A program made the position numbers and the translations under genes. Shown piece after piece: positions 6,849 through 52,709 of a stretch of 64,000 nucleotides of DNA. The stretch lies in the IMG/VR virus record IMGVR_UViG_3300045988_149625, one strand, 5' to 3'. This DNA comes from a virus. The notes beneath the pieces are model-generated. The model was not told the DNA's origin. It searched no databases and was given only the letters and a program-made list of their open reading frames with translations. Position 1 is the first letter of the stretch; each line of letters opens with the position of its first letter.

Positions 6849-7088
6849 TCATAAAGCACTTCCTATAATATTAACGCATCCACATCTAGTACATTTGTAA
6901 ATTGGATGCCCACTAAAAGATGCTTCCAATTCTGTGCTGCCACAGCTTGCACAACAATTAGAGTTACTGATTAAAGGACTTAAAATGTATAAAAAGATAA
7001 TCAATAAGACTAATAATAATACGCTATTCATTATTAACCTCCAAATATTGCATCCAACATACTTCCTATAATAAAGGAAATTATACAA
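6849..7088 (-). CDS. small membrane protein with C-terminal Cys cluster
   Basis: 79 aa; TM LLLVLLIIFLYIL then CCASCG...CTRCGC. Confidence 0.3.
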   Translation of the reverse strand: MYNFLYYRKYVGCNIWRLIMNSVLLLVLLIIFLYILSPLISNSNCCASCGSTELEASFSGHPIYKCTRCGCVNIIGSAL

Positions 7089-7315
7089 AGTGCATAGAAA
7101 TCACTTTCTTGATAAATATTAGTATGTTTATCTCTAGGACTGCTCATCATCGTTCTATATGTAGGGTGTCCTAAAATTCTGGACATAACATACAGATTGG
7201 AATGTTTGCTTTTCATAAGAATGTACCTCCATTTCTTGTATCTATTATAATACGTTGGAGGCACATTGTCAAGCACTATTTTAACTTTTTCCGCGAAAAT
7301 CTGGGAATAATTCAT
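7034..7315 (-). CDS. hypothetical protein
   Basis: 93 aa ORF. Confidence 0.3.
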   Translation of the reverse strand: MNYSQIFAEKVKIVLDNVPPTYYNRYKKWRYILMKSKHSNLYVMSRILGHPTYRTMMSSPRDKHTNIYQESDFYALCIISFIIGSMLDAIFGG

Positions 7316-7472
7316 GGGTATTTAGCCATTCAAGCGCTGGTATTCCATTAATTGTAATACCTCCACTCCCTTCTTTAAGAGGCATCCCCATATCTTCAAG
7401 AACCTTTTTAAATAATTCTACATCTTTATCCGTTATTGATTCTTTTCTCTGCTGTTTCATAATAATCCCCAT
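7281..7472 (-). CDS. hypothetical protein
   Basis: 63 aa ORF. Confidence 0.3.
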   Translation of the reverse strand: MGIIMKQQRKESITDKDVELFKKVLEDMGMPLKEGSGGITINGIPALEWLNTHELFPDFRGKS

Positions 7473-8180
7473 TTAATTCTATTCCTATAAAGTTGCGGTT
7501 TGTGTTAAGGCAAGCAACACCTGTACTTCCGCTGCCCATACAATTATCTAAAACTGTATCTCCTTCATGTGTATAGGTTTTGATAAGGTATTCCAATAAA
7601 GGTACAGGCTTTTCAGTAGGGTGGAAACCATTTGTAGGTTTATCAAAATATAAGATATTTCCTGGAAGTCTTTCTGTCACAGTCTTTGGTGCAAAATTTT
7701 CTTTAGGATGAAAATTAGAGACGACAACAGCACTAATGCCACCCTTTCGGTTAGAGCACCATGTATTTTTATAAGGTGCGCCCTTTTCCATAATTGGAAA
7801 GTAATTCATACTTCCCTTTTTAGAATGAGCACTTGCCATTTTAGAGAAAACCATAATATCTTCGTTTAATTTAAACGGTTGAAATTTTGCGTTTAAAAAG
7901 TTGCTTCCTTTATTCTTAACCCATTTCCAATCATACTTGTACGTAAGGGGGGGGGACAAGATAAGCGTAGGTGACTAGAGAATGGTTCATTTCCAAAGAG
8001 TACCACTGCTCCAGATGGCTTGATTAAACGAATATATTCCTGCCAAAGACGTTCAAAGTTTAGTACAGTATCCCATTTACACGCGCTTGTTCCATATGGT
8101 AAATCGCAGAGAATCATGTCAATACTTTCATCTTCTAAAATAGGAAATACTTTAAAACAATCTTCATTAAAAATTTTCAT
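7426..8180 (-). pseudogene. beta-class N6-adenine/N4-cytosine DNA methyltransferase, frame broken at a G9 homopolymer (candidate phase-variable gene)
   Basis: N-part (7893-8180) carries DPPY-like motif ILCDLPYGTS; C-part (7426-7959) carries SAM motif VLDNCMGSGSTGVA; the two frames overlap at GGGGGGGGG 7947-7955; a 10-G tract would give a continuous protein aligning with the paralog at 8794-9558. Confidence 0.75.
7947..7955. repeat. poly-G tract (9 G)
   Basis: homopolymer inside MTase coding sequence at the frame junction. Confidence 0.9.
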
Positions 8181-8479
8181 TGTGCCACACCGCCGTTCAA
8201 AAATGATTCAAAGTCGAAATTTAGATACTTTTTAACACCCCTCAAAGAATTAAAGCAGTCACTAAAATACTGATTTAAAATAAAGGTAGGACTGCCCTTA
8301 AATCTTTCAAGCTCTAAAAGGCTTACCAATCTAGAAACGTATTGGCAGCCATCATCGGTAGCATAATAAAGACGTATCAAGTAAGCAGTATAATCTGCAT
8401 CTAATTCAAAATCTAAATATACTATACTATCGTCAATTTTCCCTATGGGAAGTTTTCTACAATTTGGATAATAAAACAT
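8177..8479 (-). CDS. hypothetical protein
   Basis: 100 aa ORF between the two paralogous MTase genes. Confidence 0.4.
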   Translation of the reverse strand: MFYYPNCRKLPIGKIDDSIVYLDFELDADYTAYLIRLYYATDDGCQYVSRLVSLLELERFKGSPTFILNQYFSDCFNSLRGVKKYLNFDFESFLNGGVAQ

Positions 8480-8636
8480 TATAACAGCTCACTTTCTCAA
8501 ATAAGTTCCCAATCTTCAATGGTTCTAACTACTTTACGGACTTCACCGATAGAACAACCAGCATAATCATTATCACAATATTCTGTTAAACCTACCTCAT
8601 AACTAACACTATAAAGCTTCTCTTTGTAAGGGAAAA

Positions 8637-8876
8637 TTATAATGCAAAGTCCAATCCAACCCCTACATTACCCTCTACTTCATCAATCTCTTTATCCTCA
8701 GCATAGCTAACAACCTTTTTCCATTCTTGCTCGGTAAGTTTTTCGCCATTAATAGCTTTATCAAGTAATTCTTCAATAGTTAATTCAATTTTATCAAAAT
8801 TGTTCATATGTGAGTATCTCCTTTTCAATCCCTTTCTTTGCAGCATTAAAGTATGTTTCATTAAGCTCAAATCCAA
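8637..8876 (-). CDS. hypothetical protein
   Basis: 79 aa ORF. Confidence 0.35.
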   Translation of the reverse strand: MDLSLMKHTLMLQRKGLKRRYSHMNNFDKIELTIEELLDKAINGEKLTEQEWKKVVSYAEDKEIDEVEGNVGVGLDFAL

Positions 8877-9558
8877 TGTAGTTTCTATTAGTATGTAGAC
8901 ATGCTACACCTGTTGACCCACTACCCATACAGTTATCTAGGACTGTTTCTCCCTCATTGGTGTAGGTCTTAATTAGATACTCTAGCAAGGGTATAGGTTT
9001 TTGGGTGGGATGTATTGGTTTGGGAACACAATCAAACTGTAATGTATCCCAAGGATAATTAGTATATTCAGAAATGGTAACATCTTTATGCGAAGGTCTT
9101 TTCCCAGCCATAGTGCCAAATTTTGCTCCGCTTTTACCCCTGCGAATCGTCTTTTTTGCAATCAGTCCTTGGGGAAAGTATTTCATCTTGTTTTTGCCAC
9201 CATTTGCCGTTACACCTTTTGAAAAAACCGCAATTTCTTCATAGGAAGTCATAGGGCGATTTTTAGCATTTACGAAGTTTCCTCGTTTGTTTTTTAACCA
9301 TACCCATTTATATCTATATAACTTTTCGTTGCTGTTAATCAATTTGTGCGTAAACTGTCCACTGCAAAACAACACAATAGCTCCATTATTTTTAATTATT
9401 CGCTCATATTCTCCCCATAATTGGGAGAAGTCAATTACTTTATCCCAACCGCTTGCCGTAGTTCCATATGGCAAGTCACACAAAATCATGTCAACGCTTT
9501 TGTCAGGTATAGCCTTCATTAACTCTAAGCAATTACCTTGTTTAATATAACTCTGCAT
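8794..9558 (-). CDS. beta-class N6-adenine/N4-cytosine DNA methyltransferase (intact paralog)
   Basis: 254 aa; motif IV ILCDLPYGTT near N-term, motif I VLDNCMGSGSTGVAC near C-term (order IV...I, hence beta class). Confidence 0.8.
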   Translation of the reverse strand: MQSYIKQGNCLELMKAIPDKSVDMILCDLPYGTTASGWDKVIDFSQLWGEYERIIKNNGAIVLFCSGQFTHKLINSNEKLYRYKWVWLKNKRGNFVNAKNRPMTSYEEIAVFSKGVTANGGKNKMKYFPQGLIAKKTIRRGKSGAKFGTMAGKRPSHKDVTISEYTNYPWDTLQFDCVPKPIHPTQKPIPLLEYLIKTYTNEGETVLDNCMGSGSTGVACLHTNRNYIGFELNETYFNAAKKGIEKEILTYEQF

Positions 9559-9623
9559 TTATTTCTCCTTATGTTATATAGTGAAGCACTAATCAGCTGA
9601 CTAATGCTCCACCATAAACTTAA

Positions 9624-9923
9624 TTATTTAAAACATACATCTTCGTAAACCATACCACCATTAAGAGGATTAATGGAGATAATTTTCACGTTTTTATTGT
9701 CTAGAAATTTTAAAAATTTATGTTGCAAACATTTGGCATCATTTAAACTAATAGGTGTAATGTTCATTGGAATAGGTTTGTCTACACCAGTTAAAGCAAT
9801 AAAAACAATATAGTTAAATGAACCTGTCGAACTAACTTTTTTATCAAGACGAATACTTGAAAATAACTTTAAGTTAAAATACCAAGATTTTCCACCTAAT
9901 TCAACCAATTCAATATATCTCAT
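9624..9923 (-). CDS. hypothetical protein
   Basis: 99 aa ORF immediately downstream of C5-MTase. Confidence 0.4.
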   Translation of the reverse strand: MRYIELVELGGKSWYFNLKLFSSIRLDKKVSSTGSFNYIVFIALTGVDKPIPMNITPISLNDAKCLQHKFLKFLDNKNVKIISINPLNGGMVYEDVCFK

Positions 9924-9933
9924 ATAAAACTCC

Positions 9934-11013
9934 TTAATTTAGATTACGCACTTGGAAAGCATCCCCAAGTTCAATAATATCTGGGTAGTTGTTCTTAGCA
10001 ACTTTAATTGCAAAGTTGTCTATTTCATACGCTAAATAATGTACATTTGTAAAGCCTAGCTTATCTAAACAGTATCTGCCTGTGGCAATGCCGTCGTATA
10101 AAGAAACAACTTGTAATTCTTCATTTCGTGGAACGTCTTTTAATAAATGTGATAATAAATGAATTATTACCTCAGCCGTCCAACCATTACCTAAACACTT
10201 ATATCTTTGTGAATTACTGATTCCTGCTGTAAAATTATCTGGCAGTGTCTGCAATCTTTCACACTCCACAGGAGTAAGTTTGCGAATTTCATAAATGCCA
10301 TTATCAAGTTTAACATCGTACCATTTATCTCTGATAAGCATTTGCCCATTTTGTACGATGTATCCTTTAGAGGACGGAATGGCATATAATCCTGTCTTTG
10401 CACCAATACCGCCACCGTTAGCGGTTAAATTTACACTCTTACCGTCAATGCTATAAACACGGTAAGCTTGCGAAGTAGAAATTGTTCCATCAGATTTTGG
10501 TAAATTTCCTATTCTAATTGCCACCATATTACGTTGTTTACGCTCTAAAGTATTCCAAGCAACGCAATTACCATAACGTGCTGTTAAACAGTAGGCTTTG
10601 TCATTACAAGTTAAATCAACGCCATTTTCCAAAATATCTCTGAGAACAATCCCTCTATCTTCTGGAATAGGTGCAATTCCATTCAACCAATAATAGCGTT
10701 TACGCATTTGCGCCGAAACAAGTGCGCTGTCAATAGGAATTGGCGAAGTTCTCAATTCATTTGAAATTTGCTCTTTAATTGCGGATGACATAGATTGATT
10801 ATTTTCATATAAGAAAAAGTCTGGTTTGAATTGTTCTTTTGCAATTAAAAAATTCTTAAATAATTCCCAACCTTGCCCCGCAGCTACAACCTCTCTGCCT
10901 TCACGCTTAGCAATGCTCCAATATGTACAGGGAGAAGCGCCTAGAAGTAATTTAATCATAAAATCTGTCCTTTCCGTATAACTTATGCCAATTTTCTCTA
11001 ATTGATTTTGCAA
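9934..11013 (-). CDS. DNA cytosine-5 methyltransferase with permuted motif order (IV,VI,VIII,TRD,IX,X then I,II,III)
   Basis: 359 aa; GASPCTYWS (PC motif) at residues ~25-33, LYENNQS (ENV-like), LTPVECERLQTLPDNF (IX), GNGWTAEV (X), then C-terminal VVSLYDGIATGRYCL (motif I FxGxG), YLAYEIDNFA (II), LGDAFQV (III) just before the stop. Confidence 0.8.
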   Translation of the reverse strand: MQNQLEKIGISYTERTDFMIKLLLGASPCTYWSIAKREGREVVAAGQGWELFKNFLIAKEQFKPDFFLYENNQSMSSAIKEQISNELRTSPIPIDSALVSAQMRKRYYWLNGIAPIPEDRGIVLRDILENGVDLTCNDKAYCLTARYGNCVAWNTLERKQRNMVAIRIGNLPKSDGTISTSQAYRVYSIDGKSVNLTANGGGIGAKTGLYAIPSSKGYIVQNGQMLIRDKWYDVKLDNGIYEIRKLTPVECERLQTLPDNFTAGISNSQRYKCLGNGWTAEVIIHLLSHLLKDVPRNEELQVVSLYDGIATGRYCLDKLGFTNVHYLAYEIDNFAIKVAKNNYPDIIELGDAFQVRNLN

Positions 11014-17179: not shown

Positions 17180-17815
17180 ATGGCATTTATTTATAAAATT
17201 ACTAATGATATAAATGCTAAGGTGTATATTGGTAAAACTTTAGGTAGTATCAAGAAAAGGTGGAAAGAGCATTTAAAAGACTGTAAGAAGAGGAAAAATG
17301 AAAAACGACCTCTCTACGCTGCTATGAGAAAATATGGCACAGAGCATTTTAAGATTGCCTTAATAGAAGAGTGTCCTGAAGATATTGTTTCTGATAGGGA
17401 AATTTATTGGATTGAATACTTTGGTTCTTTCAAAAGTGGTTATAATGCTACAACAGGTGGGGATGGGAAGTCTTACTTAGACCGCAACATTGTAGGCGTA
17501 TTTTGGATATTTAATAAAAACATACATGAGATACAACAGCTTACAGGTTACTCCTCCTCTACAATTAGAAATGCACTACACCAATTTGGTATAGACCCCT
17601 TTTATATTAAAAAGAGGGGTAGCGAGGGTACTTATAAATCTGTTAGTATGCTCACAAAAGATGGTAAGTTTATTAGGAGCTTCCATTCTATTACCGAAGC
17701 TAATGCTTATATTGAATCTATTTATCATTGTAAAATTAATGGTGGAGGGCATATACCTTGCGTTTGCTCTGGAAAAAGAGTAACAGCTTATGGTTATAAA
17801 TGGGTATATAATTAA
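17180..17815 (+). CDS. GIY-YIG homing endonuclease (SegB/I-TevI-like) with C-terminal HTH
   Basis: 211 aa; FIYKITN...KVYIGKT (GIY...YIG), R/E/N catalytic block KKRWKEH...EIYWIEYF...YNATTGGDG; embedded in tRNA cluster. Confidence 0.85.
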   Translation: MAFIYKITNDINAKVYIGKTLGSIKKRWKEHLKDCKKRKNEKRPLYAAMRKYGTEHFKIALIEECPEDIVSDREIYWIEYFGSFKSGYNATTGGDGKSYLDRNIVGVFWIFNKNIHEIQQLTGYSSSTIRNALHQFGIDPFYIKKRGSEGTYKSVSMLTKDGKFIRSFHSITEANAYIESIYHCKINGGGHIPCVCSGKRVTAYGYKWVYN

Positions 17816-18670: not shown

Positions 18671-20206
18671 ATGAGTGTTACTTTTATGACAGCACTACAA
18701 AACGAAGCAAATAAGAGTGTTACAGAAAACGGCGCAGTAGGGTACAACACCACCTACAATGAGCTGTTGGATTTTAATTATAAAGTACCTTCATTGCGTA
18801 AGGCAGATGATGCAAACTTGCAAAAAGAGGTAGCACTACTTGTTAGTAGCATTGTTGACCCCGAACTTTTGCTACGTTACATGTTCTTTTTGCGGGACGC
18901 GCGTGGAGGAATGGGTGAAAGACGTATCTTTCGTGCTATTTTAAAGGAACTTGCAAACAGGAACTTTGAATATGTTCCTAGGATGCTGCCTTTAATAGTT
19001 GAGTATGGAAGATATGACGACCTATTTGTTTTAAAGGATACACCATTTCAAGAGGAAATGGAAGGCTATATTATAGGAACTTTATTGTCAGATGAATATT
19101 CAATGGCTAATAATGAACCTTGTTCCTTACTTGCAAAATGGATGCCATCGGTTAATGCAAGTAGTAAAGAAACCATCAAACTTGCAAATTACTTTGCTAG
19201 AGATGTTTTTAATACTACACCTGCAAAATACCGCAAGCGTCTTTCTGCATTACGCAAGCACTTAAAGGTTGTTGAAGCACAGATTAGTCGCGGAGAGTTT
19301 TCTGAGATTAATTATGAAGGAGTACCTTCAAGAGCAAATCTGCGTTACTCTAATCTTTTCCTAGATAGAGATAATGAACGCAGAAGGCAGTATTTGAAGA
19401 GCTTAGCAAGTGGGAAAGTAAAGATTAATGCAGGAGTTCTTTACCCACAAGATATTGTGGCGAAGCTAAGAGGATTATCCGATTCTGTTTATAGCTTTAG
19501 ATTCTCCAAGCAGATTCCGCAGCTTTATAAGAACCAATATAATGCAATGTGGAAAGGACTCAAAGACTTTGGTGAGCTTAAAAATACTATTGTTGTAGTT
19601 GATACTAGCGGTTCAATGTTTGAACCTGTTAGTTCTTCTATTGCGGCAATAGATGCTTCTGTTGGTTTAGGTCTTTATTTTGCCGAAAGAAATGCGGGTG
19701 TCTTTAAAGATAAAATTATTACGTTTAGTGATAATCCTACATTTGTTGATGTATCTAAATATAACAATATTTTAGATAAATTAATAGCAGTTTCAAAAGC
19801 AGAGTGGGGATTTTCTACAAATGTTGAAGCAGTATTTGATTTAGTTCTAAGAACTGCGGTAGCAAATCACTGTGAACAGTCTGAGATTCCTAGAATCTTA
19901 ATCATTAGTGATATGGAATTTAATTACTGTGTTTCAGATTCAGAGCACTTTTTGATGAAGGATATAGAATCTGACTTTAAGGCAGCAGGTTATGAGCTTC
20001 CAAAGCTTTCATTCTGGAATGTAAATTCAAGAACGAATACTCTGCCTATCACACAGAATAAACAAGGGGTTGCACTTGTTAGTGGCTATTCCACTGCTTC
20101 AATAAAAGCTGTAATGAGCAATGAGGTAGACCCATATAAAGCTTTCCTAGAGTGTTTTTACACTCCTAGGTATGACTTTATAAAAGAAGTGTTGGACATT
20201 AAATGA
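18671..20206 (+). CDS. von Willebrand factor A domain protein (MIDAS DxSxS), possibly DUF2828-like
   Basis: track ORF begins inside tRNA-Asn; likelier start ATG 18671 (MSVTFMTALQ); vWA core IVVVDTSGSMF...ILIISDMEF. Confidence 0.55.
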   Translation: MSVTFMTALQNEANKSVTENGAVGYNTTYNELLDFNYKVPSLRKADDANLQKEVALLVSSIVDPELLLRYMFFLRDARGGMGERRIFRAILKELANRNFEYVPRMLPLIVEYGRYDDLFVLKDTPFQEEMEGYIIGTLLSDEYSMANNEPCSLLAKWMPSVNASSKETIKLANYFARDVFNTTPAKYRKRLSALRKHLKVVEAQISRGEFSEINYEGVPSRANLRYSNLFLDRDNERRRQYLKSLASGKVKINAGVLYPQDIVAKLRGLSDSVYSFRFSKQIPQLYKNQYNAMWKGLKDFGELKNTIVVVDTSGSMFEPVSSSIAAIDASVGLGLYFAERNAGVFKDKIITFSDNPTFVDVSKYNNILDKLIAVSKAEWGFSTNVEAVFDLVLRTAVANHCEQSEIPRILIISDMEFNYCVSDSEHFLMKDIESDFKAAGYELPKLSFWNVNSRTNTLPITQNKQGVALVSGYSTASIKAVMSNEVDPYKAFLECFYTPRYDFIKEVLDIK

Positions 20207-21496
20207 ATAAAAGACTACTCAAATGGGTAGTCTTTTTCCATAAGGAGGTAACAATGGTAAAATTTGTTAAAAAGCGGGATGGAAGTATAGTACCTTTTGA
20301 GAAGCAAAAGATTATAAATGCTATTGGTAAAGCGGGTTTTGTAAAAGAAGATATTAAAGAAAAAATTGCAGATGAAATTCTGCATCAAAAACAAGAAGAA
20401 CTTTCGGTAGAGGCTATACAAGATTTAGTGGAAAATAAGTTAATGGCTTCTTCTTGTAAAGAAACCGCTAAGGAATATATACGTTATCGTTATAAGAGAA
20501 AATTGATTAGAGAAACAAAAGATTCTTTAAGTGAAGTCTTAGATATTGTTAATCTCAGTAATCAAGAAGTGAATGAGGAAAATAGTAATAAAAACCCTGT
20601 TATTAACTCTACGCAGCGTGATTATATGGCTGGTATGGTGTCAAAAGAATTATCTGAGAAATTGTTATTCCCACCAGATGTAATGGAGGCACACAAAGCA
20701 GGTATTATTCATGTACATGACATGGATTATGCTATTCAAAAAATGTATAATTGTGCACTATTAGATATGGAAGATATGCTACAAAATGGTACAGTTATTA
20801 ACGGAACACTGATTGAGAAACCACATAGTTTTGCTACTGCTTGTAATATTGCCACACAGATTATGGCACAAGTTGCTTCTAATCAGTATGGTGGGCAGAG
20901 TGTTTCTATAACACATTTAGCACCATTTGTCAATACTTCAAGACAGAGATTGAGAAAAAAAGTTAGAGAAGAACTTGCTCCTTATTATGAAATCTGTGAG
21001 AGTGTGGTCTTTGATATTGCTGAAAAGCGATTGAAAGAGGAAATCACTAGAGGGGTTCAAACCATGCAGTATCAAATTAACACCCTTATGACTTCCAATG
21101 GTCAGACACCTTTTGTTACCTTATTCCTATATCTCAATGAAGCTAAGAATGAGCAGGAAAAGAAAGACCTTGCTATGGTAATTGAGGAAATCATTCGTCA
21201 GCGTTATCAAGGAGTCAAGAATGAAAAGGGTGCATGGATAACCCCTGCTTTTCCTAAGCTGATATATGTCTTAGAGGAAGATAATGTTAAGGAAGGAACT
21301 CCCTATTTTTACTTAACAAAGATGGCTGCAAAATGTACGGCTAAGAGGATGGTTCCAGATTATGTTTCTGAAAAGATTATGTTAGAGAATAAGAAAACGT
21401 CCGATGGTGTTGGACATTGTTATCCTCCTATGGGATGCAGAAGCTTCTTAACACCATATCTTGATGAAAATGGAAAAGCTAAATTCTATGGACGGT
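20203..21496 (+). CDS. nrdD: anaerobic ribonucleoside-triphosphate reductase NrdD, exon 1 (ATP-cone + catalytic core N-part)
   Basis: ATP-cone VKFVKKRDGSIVPFEKQKIINAI; core GIIHVHDMDY...; ORF ends abruptly without glycyl-radical motif; splices to 22316. Confidence 0.8.
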
Positions 21497-22315
21497 TGAC
21501 CATCTGTTGAGCCGTCCTTAAACTGTGTGAACGCATGATAAAGCGGTGTGGGGAATGAACCCTGCTAACGGTGAAACTCCTAATGGACAATACCGTGCCA
21601 ACTTATATTAATAATTATTCTATAATTGGAGGAAATTATTATGACATCAATATATTTAGAGAATAAAGAATTTAAAGAACTTGATATTAACCCTAACTAT
21701 TTTATCAGTGCCGATGGTGCTGTATTTTCACAATTTGCTAAAAAGTTATTGAAGCCTCTTTATAGAGGTGTACAAGGTAAGCTATATCCTTATGTATGTA
21801 TTTACTATCAAGGCAAGCAAAGAAAATTTGCTGTCCACCGCCTTGTATATCATACATGGGTACATCCTTTAAGTAAAGGGCAGCAAGTAAATCATAAGGA
21901 TGATAATGTGAATAATTGCCACTATACGAATCTTTATGTAGGCACTAAAAAAGATAATATTGGTGATTGTGTTGCTAATGAGCATAGAGTAGGTAACGTA
22001 TTTTATTTAACCTTATTTGATAAGCTCCTTAATAAAGTAATTTCTTTTTGTCCTGCTAGAAACTTCATTGCATATAGTGGGCATATAAATAAGAGTGGTT
22101 CTTTAAATAAATTCTTTTCTAAGCACTGGTTTAAAAAACGTTATGAAATTCTTGAATTTAAACGTATTAAAAATCTTGATGAATTAAAAGGTGTAACGAC
22201 TAATGGTGATGAGTGTAACCATGTAGGATAGAGTTTATCACTATCCGAAGCGCACAGCACTTACTTAGTAAGTGAAGATATAGTCTAATCTTTATAGTAA
22301 TATAAAGTATTTATG
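21497..22315 (+). mobile_element. group I intron in nrdD carrying an HNH homing endonuclease ORF
   Basis: 5' exon ends in U of gacggU; internal guide gccgtc (21513-21518) pairs with it via G.U; intron ends in G (22315); joining gives in-frame cgg-ttc-aac-caa-ggg (GRFNQGVVTINL). Confidence 0.75.
21626..22231 (+). CDS. HNH homing endonuclease (intron-encoded)
   Basis: 201 aa; FAVHRLVYHTWVHPLSKGQQVNHKDDNVNNCHYTNL (H-N-H-like). Confidence 0.8.
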   Translation: MEEIIMTSIYLENKEFKELDINPNYFISADGAVFSQFAKKLLKPLYRGVQGKLYPYVCIYYQGKQRKFAVHRLVYHTWVHPLSKGQQVNHKDDNVNNCHYTNLYVGTKKDNIGDCVANEHRVGNVFYLTLFDKLLNKVISFCPARNFIAYSGHINKSGSLNKFFSKHWFKKRYEILEFKRIKNLDELKGVTTNGDECNHVG

Positions 22316-23241
22316 TCAACCAAGGGGTTGTCACAATAAATCTTGTTGATGTAGGATTATCTGCAAATGGCGATAAAGAAAAATTCTGGAAGATTTTAGA
22401 TGAGCGGTTAGAATTATGCCATAAAGCATTAAGGGTAAGACACCAAAATCTTAAAGGTACAATTTCTAATGTTTCACCTATTCACTGGCAGTATGGGGCT
22501 ATTGCAAGACTTCAAAAGGGAGAGAAGATTGATAAGTTATTGGAGAATGGTTACTCCACAATTTCTTTAGGGTATGCAGGTTTATATGAATGTGTTTTGG
22601 CTATGACAGGTAAATCGCATACTGACCCAGAGGCAAAGCCTTTTGCTTTAGCTATTATGCAGAGATTAAATGATAAATGTGCAGAGTGGAAAGAATTAGA
22701 GGGGTTAGGATATTCTGTATATGGTACTCCTATTGAATCAACAACTTATAAATTTGCAAAATGTTTAAAGAGCCGTTTTGGTGAGATTAAAGGCATTACA
22801 GACCACGATTATATTACTAATAGTTATCATGTTCATGTGAGAGAGCCAATAGATGCTTTTACAAAATTGAAATTTGAATCTGAATTTCAATTACTTAGTC
22901 CAGGTGGGGCTATTAGCTATATTGAATGTGCTGATATGACTAAGAATTTAGATGCTGTTATCACAGTTATTCAGTTTATTTATGATAATATTATGTATGC
23001 TGAATTAAATACTAAGAGTGATTATTGTCAAGTCTGTGGATATGATGGTGAGATTAAGATTGTTACTGACCACGGCAGACTAGAGTGGGAGTGTCCGAAT
23101 TGTGGAAATAAAGACAAGACAAAAATGAATGTCGCGCGTAGGACGTGCGGCTACATTGGAAGTCAGTTTTGGAATCAAGGACGTACCGAAGAAATTCGTG
23201 ACAGATTCGTACATTTAGGTGGGGATTTTAGCGTATTATGA
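22316..23241 (+). CDS. nrdD: NrdD exon 2 (C-terminal Zn-ribbon and glycyl-radical motif)
   Basis: open frame from 22316 reads ...NQGVVTINLVDVGLSANGDKEKFWKILDERLELCHKAL...; CQVCGYDGE...CPNCG; radical motif RRTCGYIGS. Confidence 0.8.
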
Positions 23242-40304: not shown

Positions 40305-40732
40305 TGTTAGGTTTAGATATAACTACAAATACTGATTATAAAGCTGCTGGCAATTTAGAAGTTTGGGGTATAACTGCTTTACAGTTATACTCCTACACCC
40401 TTGAATTTAATACACTTGTTGATGAAAAGTGGACAGGTAATGAACAGCGTAGGGCGCAGTGGTCAGAACCTAGAAGAACTTGGACACTCAAATTCCAAAA
40501 GACACCTGCGGGCGGCAGGAAGTTAGAGGAATTTTTTAAGCAAGTGAAAGGTAAATATAGAGCTTTTAAATTTAAGTGGGCAAGGATTTATGCAGATGAT
40601 GGCACTGATAATGGCGGCGACGATAATTGGTATTATGTTAGATTTGACAGTGACTCCATGCAGTTTACCATGAATTATATGGGGTACAGAGAAGTTTCTA
40701 TAAATTTAATAGAAGTAAGGAATGGTTCATAA
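40304..40732 (+). CDS. distal/minor tail protein (lambda gpM-like position)
   Basis: 142 aa, ATGA overlap with TMP stop. Confidence 0.45.
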   Translation: MLGLDITTNTDYKAAGNLEVWGITALQLYSYTLEFNTLVDEKWTGNEQRRAQWSEPRRTWTLKFQKTPAGGRKLEEFFKQVKGKYRAFKFKWARIYADDGTDNGGDDNWYYVRFDSDSMQFTMNYMGYREVSINLIEVRNGS

Positions 40733-41349
40733 TGACAGTAGGTATTAAACAAGACATTGCTCAATACTTAGCACAAAGCGAGATTGAAACGCGCCTATTA
40801 GTAGTTATTGAGTATGATAAAGATAACATATATAGATTTATAGCAGATGAAAGTTTAGAATCTTTTGAAATTTGTGGAAATACTTACTTATCTACACAAA
40901 TTGAGAGAGGTAGTAGGCAGGAGAACGCAGATAACTCTATTGATAGTGTTTCTTTGACACTCTCTAATCATTGGCAAGAATGGGCAGCGATTGTAGCGAA
41001 TCATGGCAACGAATTTCTGGGAAAAAGGTGTACGCTTTATGAGTGGTTTCCAGAATATCCAGAGGATGAGCCAGTACCTATGTATAGTGGCGTTTTAGAT
41101 GAAATTAAAATGTCAGCCACAAGTTTTGAAATGGAGGTTGTTAGGGTATTAGGTGACTACGACCAAGAAGCACCTTTAATGACCTACGACCCGAACTGTC
41201 AGTTTATTTATAAGGATGCTAGATGTAAGGCAAAAAATACAATTTACTATTCATGTGGTAAAACGCTGAATGACTGCATACAGCGTGGTAACGTATTAAA
41301 TTTCGGTGGGTATGTCGCCGTACCGAGAGAATATTTAGTTAAACATTAA
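40732..41349 (+). CDS. minor tail protein (lambda gpL-like position)
   Basis: 205 aa. Confidence 0.45.
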   Translation: MTVGIKQDIAQYLAQSEIETRLLVVIEYDKDNIYRFIADESLESFEICGNTYLSTQIERGSRQENADNSIDSVSLTLSNHWQEWAAIVANHGNEFLGKRCTLYEWFPEYPEDEPVPMYSGVLDEIKMSATSFEMEVVRVLGDYDQEAPLMTYDPNCQFIYKDARCKAKNTIYYSCGKTLNDCIQRGNVLNFGGYVAVPREYLVKH

Positions 41350-41350
41350 A

Positions 41351-41361
41351 GGGGGGGGGGG
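41351..41361. repeat. poly-G tract (11 G) forming the spacer/RBS of the next gene
   Basis: taa-a-GGGGGGGGGGG-caggATG. Confidence 0.9.
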
Positions 41362-41365
41362 CAGG

Positions 41366-41755
41366 ATGATTCCCAGAGAAGATGTAAAAGATTACATAGG
41401 ATTACCTTTTGTACAGGAAAAGGACGGATACGCTTGGGGATGTCTTGCTCCTTTTTATCAAATTCACCCAGAATTTGAGCATATTAAAGCATATAGGTAT
41501 CCTGTAAGTGAGGATGCTAATATGCTAAAGCATTTTAAAAGCCATTTTAAAGAAGTTGATTTAGAAGATGCCGTTTATGGGGATGTTTTGGTTATAAAAT
41601 TACCTATGAATCAATGGCATTTAGCAGTGTATTTAGGGGACGGCAAGTTAATGCACTGTACATTACATATAGACACAGAAATTACAAGACTTGAAAATTT
41701 TTCACAAGGCAGGATAAAGGGGGTATTTAGGTGTCAGGTGCAGCAGCAGCATTAG
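41366..41755 (+). CDS. NlpC/P60-like tail protein (lambda gpK-like position)
   Basis: 129 aa; Cys...His...His pattern (GYAWGCL, HLAVYLGDGKLMHC). Confidence 0.5.
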   Translation: MIPREDVKDYIGLPFVQEKDGYAWGCLAPFYQIHPEFEHIKAYRYPVSEDANMLKHFKSHFKEVDLEDAVYGDVLVIKLPMNQWHLAVYLGDGKLMHCTLHIDTEITRLENFSQGRIKGVFRCQVQQQH

Positions 41756-49035: not shown

Positions 49036-50970
49036 ATGGCAAGCTTTCATAACTGGACAGGTGATGAATTAATTGATACACAAGTCCCACAGTTTTTAAA
49101 TGAAGATAATGCAGCAACACAGGAGAAATTAGACACTAAATTTAATAAATCCTTAGATATAGCAGAAGCCTCAGACTTAAACAATTTTAAGGATGAGGGG
49201 TTCTACTGCTGTAATTCTAATTCTCGTGCTGAAACTATTTTAAATTGTCCTACTAATTATGCTTTCGGTTTAATGGTATGGGGTAAAGGCGAAATAGTCT
49301 ATCAAGAAGTGCGCGAATTTAACAGAGGCTCTAACCAAGATTACAATAACTGTTGGAGAAGAAGTTATTCTGGGGGCGGACAAGGTGTGTGGTCTAACTG
49401 GCAGAAAGTGGCTTATGCAGCTACTACTTTAGCAGAATACGGAATAACAGACGGTATGGGCAAGAACGCCACAAACAGTGTGGGTGTGACAGATATTATT
49501 AAAAGAAGTATTAATACGTCGTACTTGCGTTTAACAGGTGGCAATACATTTGATAAAAGTGCAACTCTTCAACTCTGCGGAGGTACTTATGCAACAAACG
49601 CAGGACAGTTTTTATTAAAAGCAGCAGATTCAGCACACTCAGCAACTCTTTCAGGTAATCCTTCTGGGCTACTTAAATGGAATGATAAAAATATAGTACG
49701 TTCAGTAAATAATTCTGTTGCAGATGAACATGGTAATGTAACTTTACTGTTCCCCGACTCAGATGTAACGCAGGAAGGCGCGGGGTACTGGAAGCCTAAT
49801 GAATCAGTACAAGAAGGGGATATACGTTATGTGTATGGTAGAGGAAACACAGGTGTTGTTTTAAAATGTGTGAAAGCAGGAATAACAGGAGCAGAATTAC
49901 CAGATTTAGAGGCTGCTTCAAATGCTGTGCAATTAGTAACAGAAACTACTACTGAGGTAAAACCTTTTGATATATTGGATTATGTATCACAAGTACCAGA
50001 ATATTACACACGCCCTAGTTTGTATACAGTTTCAAAAAAATCTATAACTATACCTAAGGGGTTACGTGTAAGAATTGGTGATAAAGGTTATGAGAGTGTT
50101 AGTACAACTACATTAAGCACTACATCTTTGGGAAGTTTGGCAGCAAAAGATGTTTATATATATGCTTGTGCTCCTATTACTTTATCTACTGAGCCAATAT
50201 TTGTACTTTCATTAAATAGTACAGTACCTAGTGGGTATACCGCAGAAAACAGTCGCAAGATTGGCGGTTTTCATTGCTTATGTGCAGATGTTGGTACAAT
50301 AAGTGGACATACTTTAAGTGGTTATGTAGCAGGTGACATACTTCCTGCTTCTGCATGGGATTTAATTCATCGTCCACGATGTTCCCCCGAAGCAATGGTG
50401 TATTGTGATACGGTGGACTTTTGGGTCGATATATATTTGGATAGTTGGGATGGTAACAAATTAGTATCTGTATACAAAGGTGTTACAGCAGACGGAACTT
50501 CCACTAAAAAGTTTCATGGTGAGCTTTTTGTAGATGAGCTTGCAAAATTGAATAAAAGACTACCTCCAAGAAGAGTATTTCAAGCAATAATGAAAGGCTC
50601 AAATGAACGCACCAATGTTAAAGGTTCGAAAGACGTAAATACTACTGGTGGTAATGTAGATACAGCAGGTCGAAGAATGATAAGTAATTATGGTTGTGAA
50701 GATGGCTGCGGTTTCTTGTGGCAATGGTCTGATGAACTAGGTTTTGCAGGTGGTAGTGCATGGACAGATTCAGTATATAATTCAAGTGTCGATTCTGAAA
50801 GAATTGGACAAACTTATGGAACTTTGTATAGAGCTGCGCTGGGCGGTTGCTGGGTTCACGGCGGTTCTTGTGGTTCGCGGTCGGTGTTTTGCAGCCATTC
50901 CTCGGCTCTTGTCAGTGCTTATTTTGGCGGTCGCGGCGCTTGCGAGCCGAAGGTCGCAAAGTTCTATTAG
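49036..50970 (+). CDS. DGR target protein: tail fibre/receptor-binding protein with C-terminal variable (C-type-lectin-like) region
   Basis: 644 aa; 3' 115 nt form VR matching TR except at TR adenines. Confidence 0.85.
   Translation: MASFHNWTGDELIDTQVPQFLNEDNAATQEKLDTKFNKSLDIAEASDLNNFKDEGFYCCNSNSRAETILNCPTNYAFGLMVWGKGEIVYQEVREFNRGSNQDYNNCWRRSYSGGGQGVWSNWQKVAYAATTLAEYGITDGMGKNATNSVGVTDIIKRSINTSYLRLTGGNTFDKSATLQLCGGTYATNAGQFLLKAADSAHSATLSGNPSGLLKWNDKNIVRSVNNSVADEHGNVTLLFPDSDVTQEGAGYWKPNESVQEGDIRYVYGRGNTGVVLKCVKAGITGAELPDLEAASNAVQLVTETTTEVKPFDILDYVSQVPEYYTRPSLYTVSKKSITIPKGLRVRIGDKGYESVSTTTLSTTSLGSLAAKDVYIYACAPITLSTEPIFVLSLNSTVPSGYTAENSRKIGGFHCLCADVGTISGHTLSGYVAGDILPASAWDLIHRPRCSPEAMVYCDTVDFWVDIYLDSWDGNKLVSVYKGVTADGTSTKKFHGELFVDELAKLNKRLPPRRVFQAIMKGSNERTNVKGSKDVNTTGGNVDTAGRRMISNYGCEDGCGFLWQWSDELGFAGGSAWTDSVYNSSVDSERIGQTYGTLYRAALGGCWVHGGSCGSRSVFCSHSSALVSAYFGGRGACEPKVAKFY
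50831..50945 (+). repeat. DGR variable repeat (VR)
   Basis: 115 nt aligned to TR: 26 mismatches, all at TR A positions; GC-rich 3' end ggcggtcgcggcgcttgcga (IMH-like). Confidence 0.9.
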
Positions 50971-51046
50971 AACTAGGTATACGGCTACATGAAGTTGTTA
51001 AGGAACACGAAGTAGTCTTGAATATACTGGGTTGTGGTTGTTAAAA

Positions 51047-51161
51047 GAGCTAAACTAGGCGGTAACTGGGATAACAGCAGTTCTTGTAGTTCGCAGTCAG
51101 TGAATTGCAACAATTCCTCAGCTAATGTCAATGCTAATTATGGCGGTCGCGGCGCTTGCGA
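51047..51161 (+). repeat. DGR template repeat (TR)
   Basis: AAC/AAT-rich (LGGNWDNSSSCSSQSVNCNNSSANVNANYGGRGACD in VR frame), non-coding copy. Confidence 0.9.
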
Positions 51162-51416
51162 TACGGAGAGAGCTATTCCTTCGGCTGAACCACAATCCAT
51201 TCTAGCAGAGAAATACTGTATAGAAAAACACACAACAGGAGTATAGAAGGGCTAGTAGTGTAAACGAACGTCATTCTATAAAACTCCGTATCTTTAAATA
51301 AAGGAGAAATAAACTTGAAAAGAATTGGGAATTTATGAACTAAAATTATAGATAAAGAAAATATTAAGGAGAGTATTTTAAGCGCTGCAAAACATAAGAA
51401 AAAGCGCCCTGCGGTA

Positions 51417-52709
51417 ATGAAGGTACTCAATAATATAGACGAATATGTAGAAAAGATTCACAAATTGTTAGTAAACAAGGAGTATAAAGTTTCGGAATAT
51501 TATATAAAAGCAATTTATGAGCCTAAGCTAAGGCTTATTTACATATTACCCTTTTATCCAGATAATATAATATTTCACTGCATAATGAGGGTATTAGAGC
51601 CTATATGGGACAGTAGGTTTATTTATGATACTTATTCATGCAGGAAGGGTAAGGGGCAACATAAAGGAATGTTAAAGAGCACTATATACGTAAAGAATTA
51701 CAAATACTGCTTAAAATGTGATATAAGTCAGTTTTACCCAAGCCTTAATCATAGAATACTAAAGGAAAGTTTCCGTTGGAAAATCAAAGATAAGGACGTA
51801 TTGGAGCTACTTGACTTAATAGTAGATAGTGTTTCTGTGCGGGAAAGGAATCTAGATTTTTTAAAGTGCTGCAAGGCAAGTGATAAACATATGATGGAAC
51901 AGAAGCTTCAAACATTAAAAGAAGAGTTCCCAGAAGGAGATTTCGGTGTGCCTATTGGTAATTATCCTTCACAATGGTTCGGAAACCTTTATATGAACCC
52001 TTTAGATAACCTTATTAAGTACTGTTTCCATGCAAAAGCATATGTAAGATACTGCGACGATTTTGTTGTTTACAGTAATGATAAAAAGTGGTTACATAGT
52101 GTAGCTGCGGAGATAGAGAACTTTTGTAAGGAAAGATTAAAATTAAAGATGAGTAAGTGTCGGGTATTTCCTACGAAGTGTGGAGTAGATTTCTTAGGGT
52201 ATAAAGCATTTCCCAGTGGTAAGATTCTTTTGCGTAAAAGGACAGCAAAAAGAGTCCATAAACAAATAAAAGCATTATGGAAAGAGCTATCTTATGGGAA
52301 CTATGAACAAATGCTTTCTAAAGTGGGAAGCAGAATGGGGTATTTAAGGTACGCTAAAAGTTATAATTTTAGATTACAAATAAAGATTAAAGAGTTGGAA
52401 AGGGAACTAAAAAGGAGGATTAGTATGGTAGGTTATCCAAAAAATTTAAGCACAAAAGAAGATTATGAGTACGTGAGAACACATTTCCCTAAAAGTGATT
52501 GGCAGAAAGACTTTGAAAGTCTTTTACCTCGCAAGGAATGGTTCTTCATTGAAGAAACTAAGGTTAATAAAAAAGAAGATGCTACTCATAAAACAGAACC
52601 CTCTGACGATGAAGGGGTATTCTATCGTTATGAATTGAGGGGGGTAAGTAAGGCAGCAGAAATTGGATATACGGTAGAAGAAGTAGAGAAGATTCTAAGG
52701 AGTGAATAA
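51417..52709 (+). CDS. DGR reverse transcriptase
   Basis: 430 aa; RT motifs LKCDISQFYPS, GVPIGNYPSQ, YVRYCDDFVV (YxDD); the frame is open upstream to 51339 with RT-like residues but no ATG. Confidence 0.9.
   Translation: MKVLNNIDEYVEKIHKLLVNKEYKVSEYYIKAIYEPKLRLIYILPFYPDNIIFHCIMRVLEPIWDSRFIYDTYSCRKGKGQHKGMLKSTIYVKNYKYCLKCDISQFYPSLNHRILKESFRWKIKDKDVLELLDLIVDSVSVRERNLDFLKCCKASDKHMMEQKLQTLKEEFPEGDFGVPIGNYPSQWFGNLYMNPLDNLIKYCFHAKAYVRYCDDFVVYSNDKKWLHSVAAEIENFCKERLKLKMSKCRVFPTKCGVDFLGYKAFPSGKILLRKRTAKRVHKQIKALWKELSYGNYEQMLSKVGSRMGYLRYAKSYNFRLQIKIKELERELKRRISMVGYPKNLSTKEDYEYVRTHFPKSDWQKDFESLLPRKEWFFIEETKVNKKEDATHKTEPSDDEGVFYRYELRGVSKAAEIGYTVEEVEKILRSE

Follow-up and report, generated by a model that had tools for sequence, protein, structure and literature searches.

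A homopolymeric C-run in an orphan DNA methyltransferase gene of an uncultivated gut phage as a probable contingency locus

The IMG/VR virus record IMGVR_UViG_3300045988_149625 was analysed over a stretch of 64,000 nucleotides (hereafter, the window), which contains on its minus strand a gene for a beta-class N6-adenine/N4-cytosine (N6A/N4C) DNA methyltransferase (positions 7426-8180). This gene is broken by a homopolymer tract at 7947-7955, which reads G9 on the plus strand and C9 on the coding strand. In related phages from the human gut, the tract varies naturally in length, frameshifts are concentrated at it, and the rest of the gene is under purifying selection. The C-run is probably a hypermutable simple-sequence-repeat contingency locus inside an orphan phage methyltransferase gene. 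Homopolymer tracts in phage genes for DNA modification have precedents; the value of this case lies in the breadth of the evidence from natural populations of a gut phage.

The split gene and its reading frames

In the window, the methyltransferase gene is present as a frameshifted (OFF) allele, and two minus-strand frames from the list of open reading frames (ORFs) overlap and meet inside the tract. The N-terminal ORF at 7893-8180 starts with ATG and encodes 95 amino acids. It includes the catalytic motif IV, CDLPYG (8091-8108, minus strand, residues 25-30 of the repaired protein), and continues past the tract for 17 out-of-frame codons until a stop codon is reached. The C-terminal reading frame (7426-7959, minus strand) counts 177 codons when started at a TTG within the tract, is without stop or other lesion and carries the S-adenosylmethionine (SAM)-binding motif I, MGSGSTG (7519-7539, minus strand, residues 215-221 of the repaired protein). 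When the tract length was varied in silico, a single ORF was restored by C10, giving a protein of 251 amino acids, or by C7 (250 amino acids), and not by C8, C9, C11 or C12. An initial annotation, made from the letters of this DNA alone, had placed the split exactly at the G9 run and had stated that one added G fuses the two frames; both points were borne out.

The tract occupies codons 76-78 (Pro-Pro-Pro) of the 251 codons of the repaired gene, and is thus a homopolymer of at least seven bases inside an ORF, as used to recognize contingency loci. The G+C content of the window is 36%, and the only G/C runs longer than six bases in it are the G9 at 7947-7955 and a G11 at 41351-41361, in agreement with the earlier description of an AT-rich genome having two G-runs of nine or more. 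Under a model of independent and identically distributed bases, 0.03 G-runs of this length are expected in the window. In 268 kb of related loci, G/C runs of seven or more were likewise found only at the methyltransferase tract and at the G11 site.

The start codon of the gene at 8180 is ATG in the window and GTG in the relatives examined (contigs L001, L049, L050, L054 and L059). With its neighbours, the gene overlaps by 4 nt (upstream ORF of 100 amino acids) and by 47 nt (downstream ORF of 63 amino acids). Owing to the latter overlap, the early stop of the OFF state might alter translation of the downstream ORF.

Identity of the enzyme

The repaired protein matches Pfam family PF01555 (N6_N4_Mtase) over the complete profile (1-221/221) with 97.1 bits at a cut-off of 26.7. 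Motif IV lies N-terminal to motif I, which is the circular permutation of the beta class, and the D-L-P-Y of motif IV (canonical form, DPPY) is invariant in 33 of 33 aligned homologs. An AlphaFold model of the repaired protein, obtained with a pLDDT (predicted local distance difference test) of 78.7 and a pTM (predicted template modelling score) of 0.79, gave M.BceJIV, M.MboIIA, RsrI, M1.HpyAVI and CcrM as best Foldseek matches with E-values down to 1.8e-15. By profile, motif order and predicted fold, the split gene is assigned to the beta-class N6-adenine/N4-cytosine DNA methyltransferases.

A paralogous beta-class methyltransferase of 254 amino acids, intact and without the tract, is encoded at 8794-9558 on the minus strand. 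It is 49% identical to the repaired protein from end to end (E 7e-76), so that the full-length alignment with this paralog described in the initial annotation was reproduced. A C5 cytosine methyltransferase gene (9934-11013, minus strand) belongs to the same early-gene block and served as control for the background frequency of frameshifts. Together with the split gene, these make up the three methyltransferase genes that a Pfam scan detects in the window, the number given earlier as well.

The closest full-length relative of the repaired protein is 97% identical and stands for 387 distinct sequences clustered at 90%, after which the next homologs are at most 61% identical. In the alignment of 33 homologs, SCPPPLTYKYD is found only in the window lineage and SNxx[LM]YKYD in 31 homologs; the C-run is therefore a lineage-specific insertion of two codons between invariant residues. 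In the AlphaFold model, it is located in a loop between helix 67-74 and strand 80-90. Its codons are rare: of the proline codons in the window, 11% are CCC, and the 12,048 other codons do not encode a single further PPP.

No nuclease or specificity subunit adjoining the methyltransferase gene was detected by the Pfam scan, and the gene is classified by its sequence context as a putative orphan Type II-like phage methyltransferase. Membership in a phasevarion, i.e. a mod or hsd part of a chromosomal Type I or III system, was considered as well and rejected, the gene being phage-borne and located among small early ORFs and other methyltransferases.

Tract alleles in related phages

About 40 related contigs from human-gut metagenomes were gathered by DNA pattern, protein search and look-up of exact products, and the gene was then aligned. 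A DNA pattern with exact flanks had no match in IMG/VR; a relaxed pattern found the relatives. Alleles in which the gene is in frame (ON) comprise C10TT on six backbones (e.g., L004, L006 and L016 at 57x, 42x and 101x coverage, respectively), C9ATT (L049, L054), C8TATT (L001) and the interrupted tracts CCCCTACCTC or CCTCTGCCCC (L008, L059). A stop codon in L054 was discounted as probably erroneous, since it is surrounded by several T-to-G changes at the end of the contig. OFF alleles are C9TT in the window, L028, L029 and L007 (24.6x), C8TT in L002/L009 and L025-L027 with eight contigs on record, C7ATT in L050 and C6TT in L005.

ON and OFF states were found on near-identical backbones. The backbones of L049 (C9ATT, ON) and L050 (C7ATT, OFF) are identical, and L006 (C10) and L007 (C9) are separated by two synonymous differences. 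At the protein level, truncated N-terminal products fall into two clusters of their own, with 47 and 3 distinct sequences, and their tails imply, as inferred from translation, the further alleles C11TT, C12TT, C9TCTT and C10TATT. Tract lengths of 6-10 read in DNA and of 11-12 deduced from products hence bracket the in-frame length of 10, and since the product tails imply alleles longer than C10, both expansions and contractions appear to occur. Records from NCBI, JGI/IMG, Logan and ENA contain the exact 95-residue product of the window on 7-9 contigs, the majority of them 50-200 kb long. Among contigs not chosen by state, about 40% are OFF (3/6 from pattern scans, 1/4 of the paralog-carrying contigs, plus the window). 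The proposal of a phase-variation switch, for which a comparison of tract lengths in related phages had been suggested, is supported by this range of C6-C10 in DNA; among the relatives, the tract is neither invariantly in frame nor fixed as an out-of-frame pseudogene.

Two megahit contigs (L051 and L052, runs ERR321485 and ERR209472) end inside the C-tract, and these breaks are compatible with mixed tract lengths or with poor read quality.

Frameshift frequency and selection on the gene

The tract proves to be a genuine hot spot of frameshifts: at least five of nine independent frameshift events fall within 10 of the 1835 nt of the gene and the neighbouring C5 methyltransferase gene (binomial P = 6e-10), a conservative count that refers to events in assemblies and is not a measured rate. 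The C5 methyltransferase control showed one frameshift in 18 sequences. This sole event splits the gene in L028 (1583-2610) by a single-base deletion, AGTAATT to AGTATT, and was seen in a Logan contig from one run, so that an error is possible. A second apparent truncation of the C5 methyltransferase, in L049, was rejected as a scaffold gap of N's.

Outside the tract, the DNA set contains three further frameshift alleles, namely G4 and G6 at an A4G5 run and a T deletion. The A4G5 run constitutes a second frameshift spot in relatives and corresponds to window positions 7810-7821 (minus strand); it reads A5G3 in the window and A4G5 in lineages with an interrupted C-tract. Within the CCTCTGCCCC lineage, G5 is found in L059 (ON), G4 in L042 and G6 in L043-L045. 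Where the C-tract is interrupted, this shorter repeat acts as a frameshift site. The T deletion affects AAAGGGTGGC, which corresponds to window 7738-7747, in L046-L048, contigs that stem from three runs of a single study. Additionally, a frameshift after IMEK occurs in P0161 (three contigs of up to 99 kb).

In the DNA alignment, no second stop or frameshift was found in the tract-OFF alleles. Pairwise ratios of nonsynonymous (dN) to synonymous (dS) substitution rates range from 0.03 to 0.2 at dS 0.1-0.37, a span that also covers pairs of two OFF alleles (0.037 for the window vs L028, 0.052 for L028 vs the C8 group). In a neighbour-joining tree, the OFF alleles are all placed at tips, with ON alleles as their closest relatives. 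The lack of second lesions, the low dN/dS and the tip positions together indicate that the OFF states are young and recurrent in a gene under purifying selection. Judging from these sequence comparisons, the gene has been translated at full length through most of its history.

Alternative explanations

The serious alternative is non-adaptive decay, in which the gene is dispensable, the C-run is a mutational weak point, and the OFF alleles are dead-end pseudogenes that are lost instead of being reverted, with no selected switch. Several observations weigh against a contingency locus. Frameshifts circulate in several samples at sites which are not long repeats (G4/G6 at the G5 run, the T deletion of L046-L048, P0161), which suggests that loss of function is tolerated or favoured without a switch and that recurrent inactivation is broader than the tract. 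As the tract is interrupted in 5 of 18 backbones, it is not strictly maintained. In-frame C7TT or C13TT alleles, which would show passage from OFF to ON, were absent among the alleles collected, and the coverage is very low for some contigs (1.75x for L050, 1.24x for L045). The high share of OFF contigs of roughly 40% and the variable methyltransferase content of the surrounding block (paralog, D12-class methyltransferase, PAPS-reductase-like gene) also fit decay, as do the non-tract frameshifts and the eroded tracts. In contrast, even comparisons of OFF alleles with one another reveal strong purifying selection (dN/dS 0.04-0.15 at dS 0.16-0.36), and these alleles are free of second lesions and placed at tips with ON sisters. 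Moreover, the tract has been kept in 13 of the 18 backbones despite its rare codons. Decay is consequently regarded as unlikely; it parts from the contingency-locus reading only on reversion and selection, which the present data do not separate.

Sequencing error, named in the initial annotation as the trivial alternative, is unlikely as a general explanation, since alleles two or four bases off frame recur in independent samples and assemblers, and a C9 contig at 24x coverage stands next to a C10 contig at 42x. For the window alone, where the true genome would be C10 with an intact gene, such an error is improbable. In its favour, several platforms are prone to errors in homopolymers of 9-10 bases, the length found most often in in-frame relatives is C10, and L051 and L052 illustrate assembler trouble at this tract. 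However, the exact 95-residue C9 product occurs on contigs from four sources, and C9 is found on four other backbones, including the contig at 24.6x. In addition, alleles two to four bases off frame (C8, C7A, C6) recur across samples, and this distance from the in-frame length implies that they are not single-base consensus errors.

Recoding is far less probable still. Here, the C9 allele would give full-length enzyme by programmed -1 ribosomal frameshifting or by RNA polymerase slippage that adds a C. Formally, C CCC CCC conforms to the slippery pattern X XXY YYZ, and the 251-residue protein is exactly what a -1 shift would yield. Homopolymers of at least nine bases are known sites of transcriptional slippage, although mostly as A and T runs. 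The out-of-frame arrangement, however, is not conserved among relatives, in most of which the gene is in frame; where it is not, the shift required varies (C8 and C11 vs C9, C6 and C12). Besides, the 121 nt from the tract onward have a minimum free energy of -15.4 kcal/mol compared to a shuffle mean of -18.0 (z = +0.87), and no Rfam match was found in the region. Some low-level leakiness of the C9 allele by recoding may occur.

It is just as hard to credit that the gene was discarded because the strain had gained the paralog at 8794-9558, for although the first three paralog-carrying genomes (window, L042, L043) are all OFF, each with a different lesion, contigs picked by the paralog alone show both states (L049 and L059 ON, L054 in frame at the tract, L050 OFF), many OFF alleles reside in genomes without it (C8 group, L028, L005), and it is present in a minority of genomes only (cluster of 17 vs 387).

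The phage and its genome

The source of the window is an uncultivated gut siphovirus of about 100 kb. The window encodes TerL, a portal protein, a major head protein, an ORF of 1634 amino acids of tape-measure size and tail genes; TerL shares 46% identity with its counterpart in Bacillus phage BCD7, and the related contigs are 97-105 kb long. A megablast search of positions 7000-10000 against the phage GenBank collection returned a single match of 100 nt, from which it follows that there is no close cultured relative. Neither a DNA pattern nor a protein search revealed a prophage copy in 185,579 species-representative genomes, the sole match being a 46%-identical methyltransferase in a metagenome-assembled genome of Clostridia. 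No integrase or repressor was found among the window ORFs scanned. The host is probably an anaerobic Firmicute, as suggested by the presence of an anaerobic ribonucleotide reductase gene. This gene, nrdD (20203-23241), is split into two pieces (20203-21510 and 22540-23241) that flank an HNH endonuclease ORF (21626-22231), an arrangement suggestive of an insertion of the intron or intein type. Another ORF, at 17180-17815, resembles GIY-YIG/NUMOD1 homing endonucleases.

The methyltransferase block (window 8480-9930) differs among strains (L016-L028, L043, L049, L059). The paralog and its flanking ORFs of 99 and 103 amino acids occur in a minority of the related phages, with a protein cluster of 17 vs 387. 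In other strains (L016, L025, L059), a PAPS-reductase-like gene or a D12-class methyltransferase is found downstream, both of which are missing from the window.

The second long G-run, G11 at 41351-41361, falls in the ribosome-binding region of a minor tail protein gene: ORF 40732-41349 stops ahead of it, and the tail gene begins with an ATG at 41366. In relatives, this site is AGGAGGGGGCAGG or AAGGAGGGGCAGG, a normal Shine-Dalgarno sequence. G11 is common only to the window and L032 (ERR209452) and is 3 nt longer than in the relatives; by this comparison, it is a lineage-specific expansion and not a conserved variable tract.

A diversity-generating retroelement is located at 49036-52709. Its variable repeat (50830-50952) ends a tail ORF of 644 amino acids (49036-50970) and is followed by the template repeat (51046-51168) and a reverse transcriptase gene (Pfam RVT_1, 51417-52709); differences within the repeat core fall at template adenines.

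Proposed mechanism and implications

If the C-run is a contingency locus, polymerase slippage during phage replication would lead to the gain or loss of C's. On the common haplotype, C10TT is in frame and ON, and C9, C8, C6, C11 and C12 are OFF. The predicted OFF product is a fragment of 81-96 amino acids with motif IV and without the SAM-binding motif I, the absence of which should leave it unable to methylate. Provided that OFF alleles revert to ON and that both states coexist within a population, phage populations would be mixtures of particles with and without the methyl mark of this enzyme. The ON state could afford protection against host restriction enzymes of matching specificity, and the OFF state an escape from methylation-dependent (Type IV-like) restriction or from the cost of the enzyme. 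This selective trade-off is modelled by analogy on the agt gene of phage T2.

A more far-reaching and tentative proposal is that this phage, as an abundant member of the gut virome, combines two independent bet-hedging devices, the tail-fibre retroelement and a C-run switch that is under selection and controls an anti-restriction methyltransferase. The progeny of a burst would then include both methylated and unmethylated genomes to face classical or methylation-dependent restriction, and the short G-run would take over if the C-run is interrupted. With the two devices paired in Bordetella phage BPP-1 as well, the strategy would be a convergent one, general among phages.

Allele frequencies at the locus are visible in public metagenomes, with about 4 in 10 assembled genomes being OFF. 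For annotation, split methyltransferase calls at this locus represent biology and not junk. If the switch is adaptive, methylation state and host range with respect to restriction systems would be properties of a population mixture instead of fixed traits, with consequences for host prediction, for the design of phage therapy and for how 'pseudogenes' in assembled viral metagenomes are interpreted.

Comparison with known systems

Phase-variable methyltransferases are well described in bacteria, for example the Type III mod phasevarions and the Type IIG enzyme cj0031 of C. jejuni with its polyG tract (PMC4889913; review PMC11868660). As proposed for the gut phage, a simple repeat within the methyltransferase ORF permits ON/OFF frameshifting, with heterogeneous methylation in the population. 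The bacterial genes, however, are parts of chromosomal restriction-modification systems whose switching reprogrammes host gene expression, whereas the enzyme described here is an orphan encoded by a phage. Among phages, hypermutable polyG tracts are described in receptor-binding protein genes of Campylobacter Fletchervirus phages (Sorensen et al. 2021). There, too, G-runs of 7-11 in an AT-rich phage genome give rise to ON/OFF subpopulations, but the target is host recognition and not DNA modification.

Phage contingency loci as a general idea have been proposed only recently, in laboratory coliphages, to which a probable natural example from the human gut can now be added. In the T2 gene agt, encoding alpha-glucosyltransferase, an A9 run was shown experimentally to be a reversible contingency locus (Gomez, Barrick and Waters, bioRxiv 10.1101/2025.10.21.683753). 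Frameshifts of +/-1 occur at this run, which reverts about 1000-fold more often than a point mutant does, and toggling of glucosylation allows escape from TgvAB at the price of McrA/BC restriction, both being Type IV systems (bioRxiv 10.1101/2025.10.21.683753). Both cases concern a homopolymer in a phage gene for DNA modification, and the mechanism proposed for the gut phage is the same. In contrast to the gut phage, with a methyltransferase, a C-run and population genomics alone, T2 is a virulent coliphage in which glucosylation of hydroxymethylcytosine depends on an A-run and the evidence is experimental.

The other related case is bpm of Bordetella phage BPP-1 (Liu et al. 2004), whose poly-G tract was noted but not studied further, according to the same preprint (bioRxiv 10.1101/2025.10.21.683753). 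In GenBank records, this tract reads G8 in BPP-1 and vB_BbrP_003 (annotated as intact), G9 in BIP-1 and G10 in BMP-1. Like the repaired protein of the gut phage, the bpm product is a 251-residue beta-class N6_N4 phage methyltransferase with a G/C homopolymer inside its ORF. The bpm tract is the only G/C run of at least eight bases in the BPP-1 genome, and both phages possess a diversity-generating retroelement directed at a gene for a tail protein. The phages themselves are unrelated, BPP-1 being a temperate Bordetella podovirus of 42 kb with 65% G+C, as opposed to a gut siphovirus of about 100 kb with 36% G+C. Furthermore, the two proteins match over 62 C-terminal residues only (42% identity), and the bpm tract is found at codon 195 near motif I, in contrast to codons 76-78 in the gut phage. 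Because the tract positions differ and the proteins match only C-terminally, the two tracts are taken to have arisen independently, by convergence.

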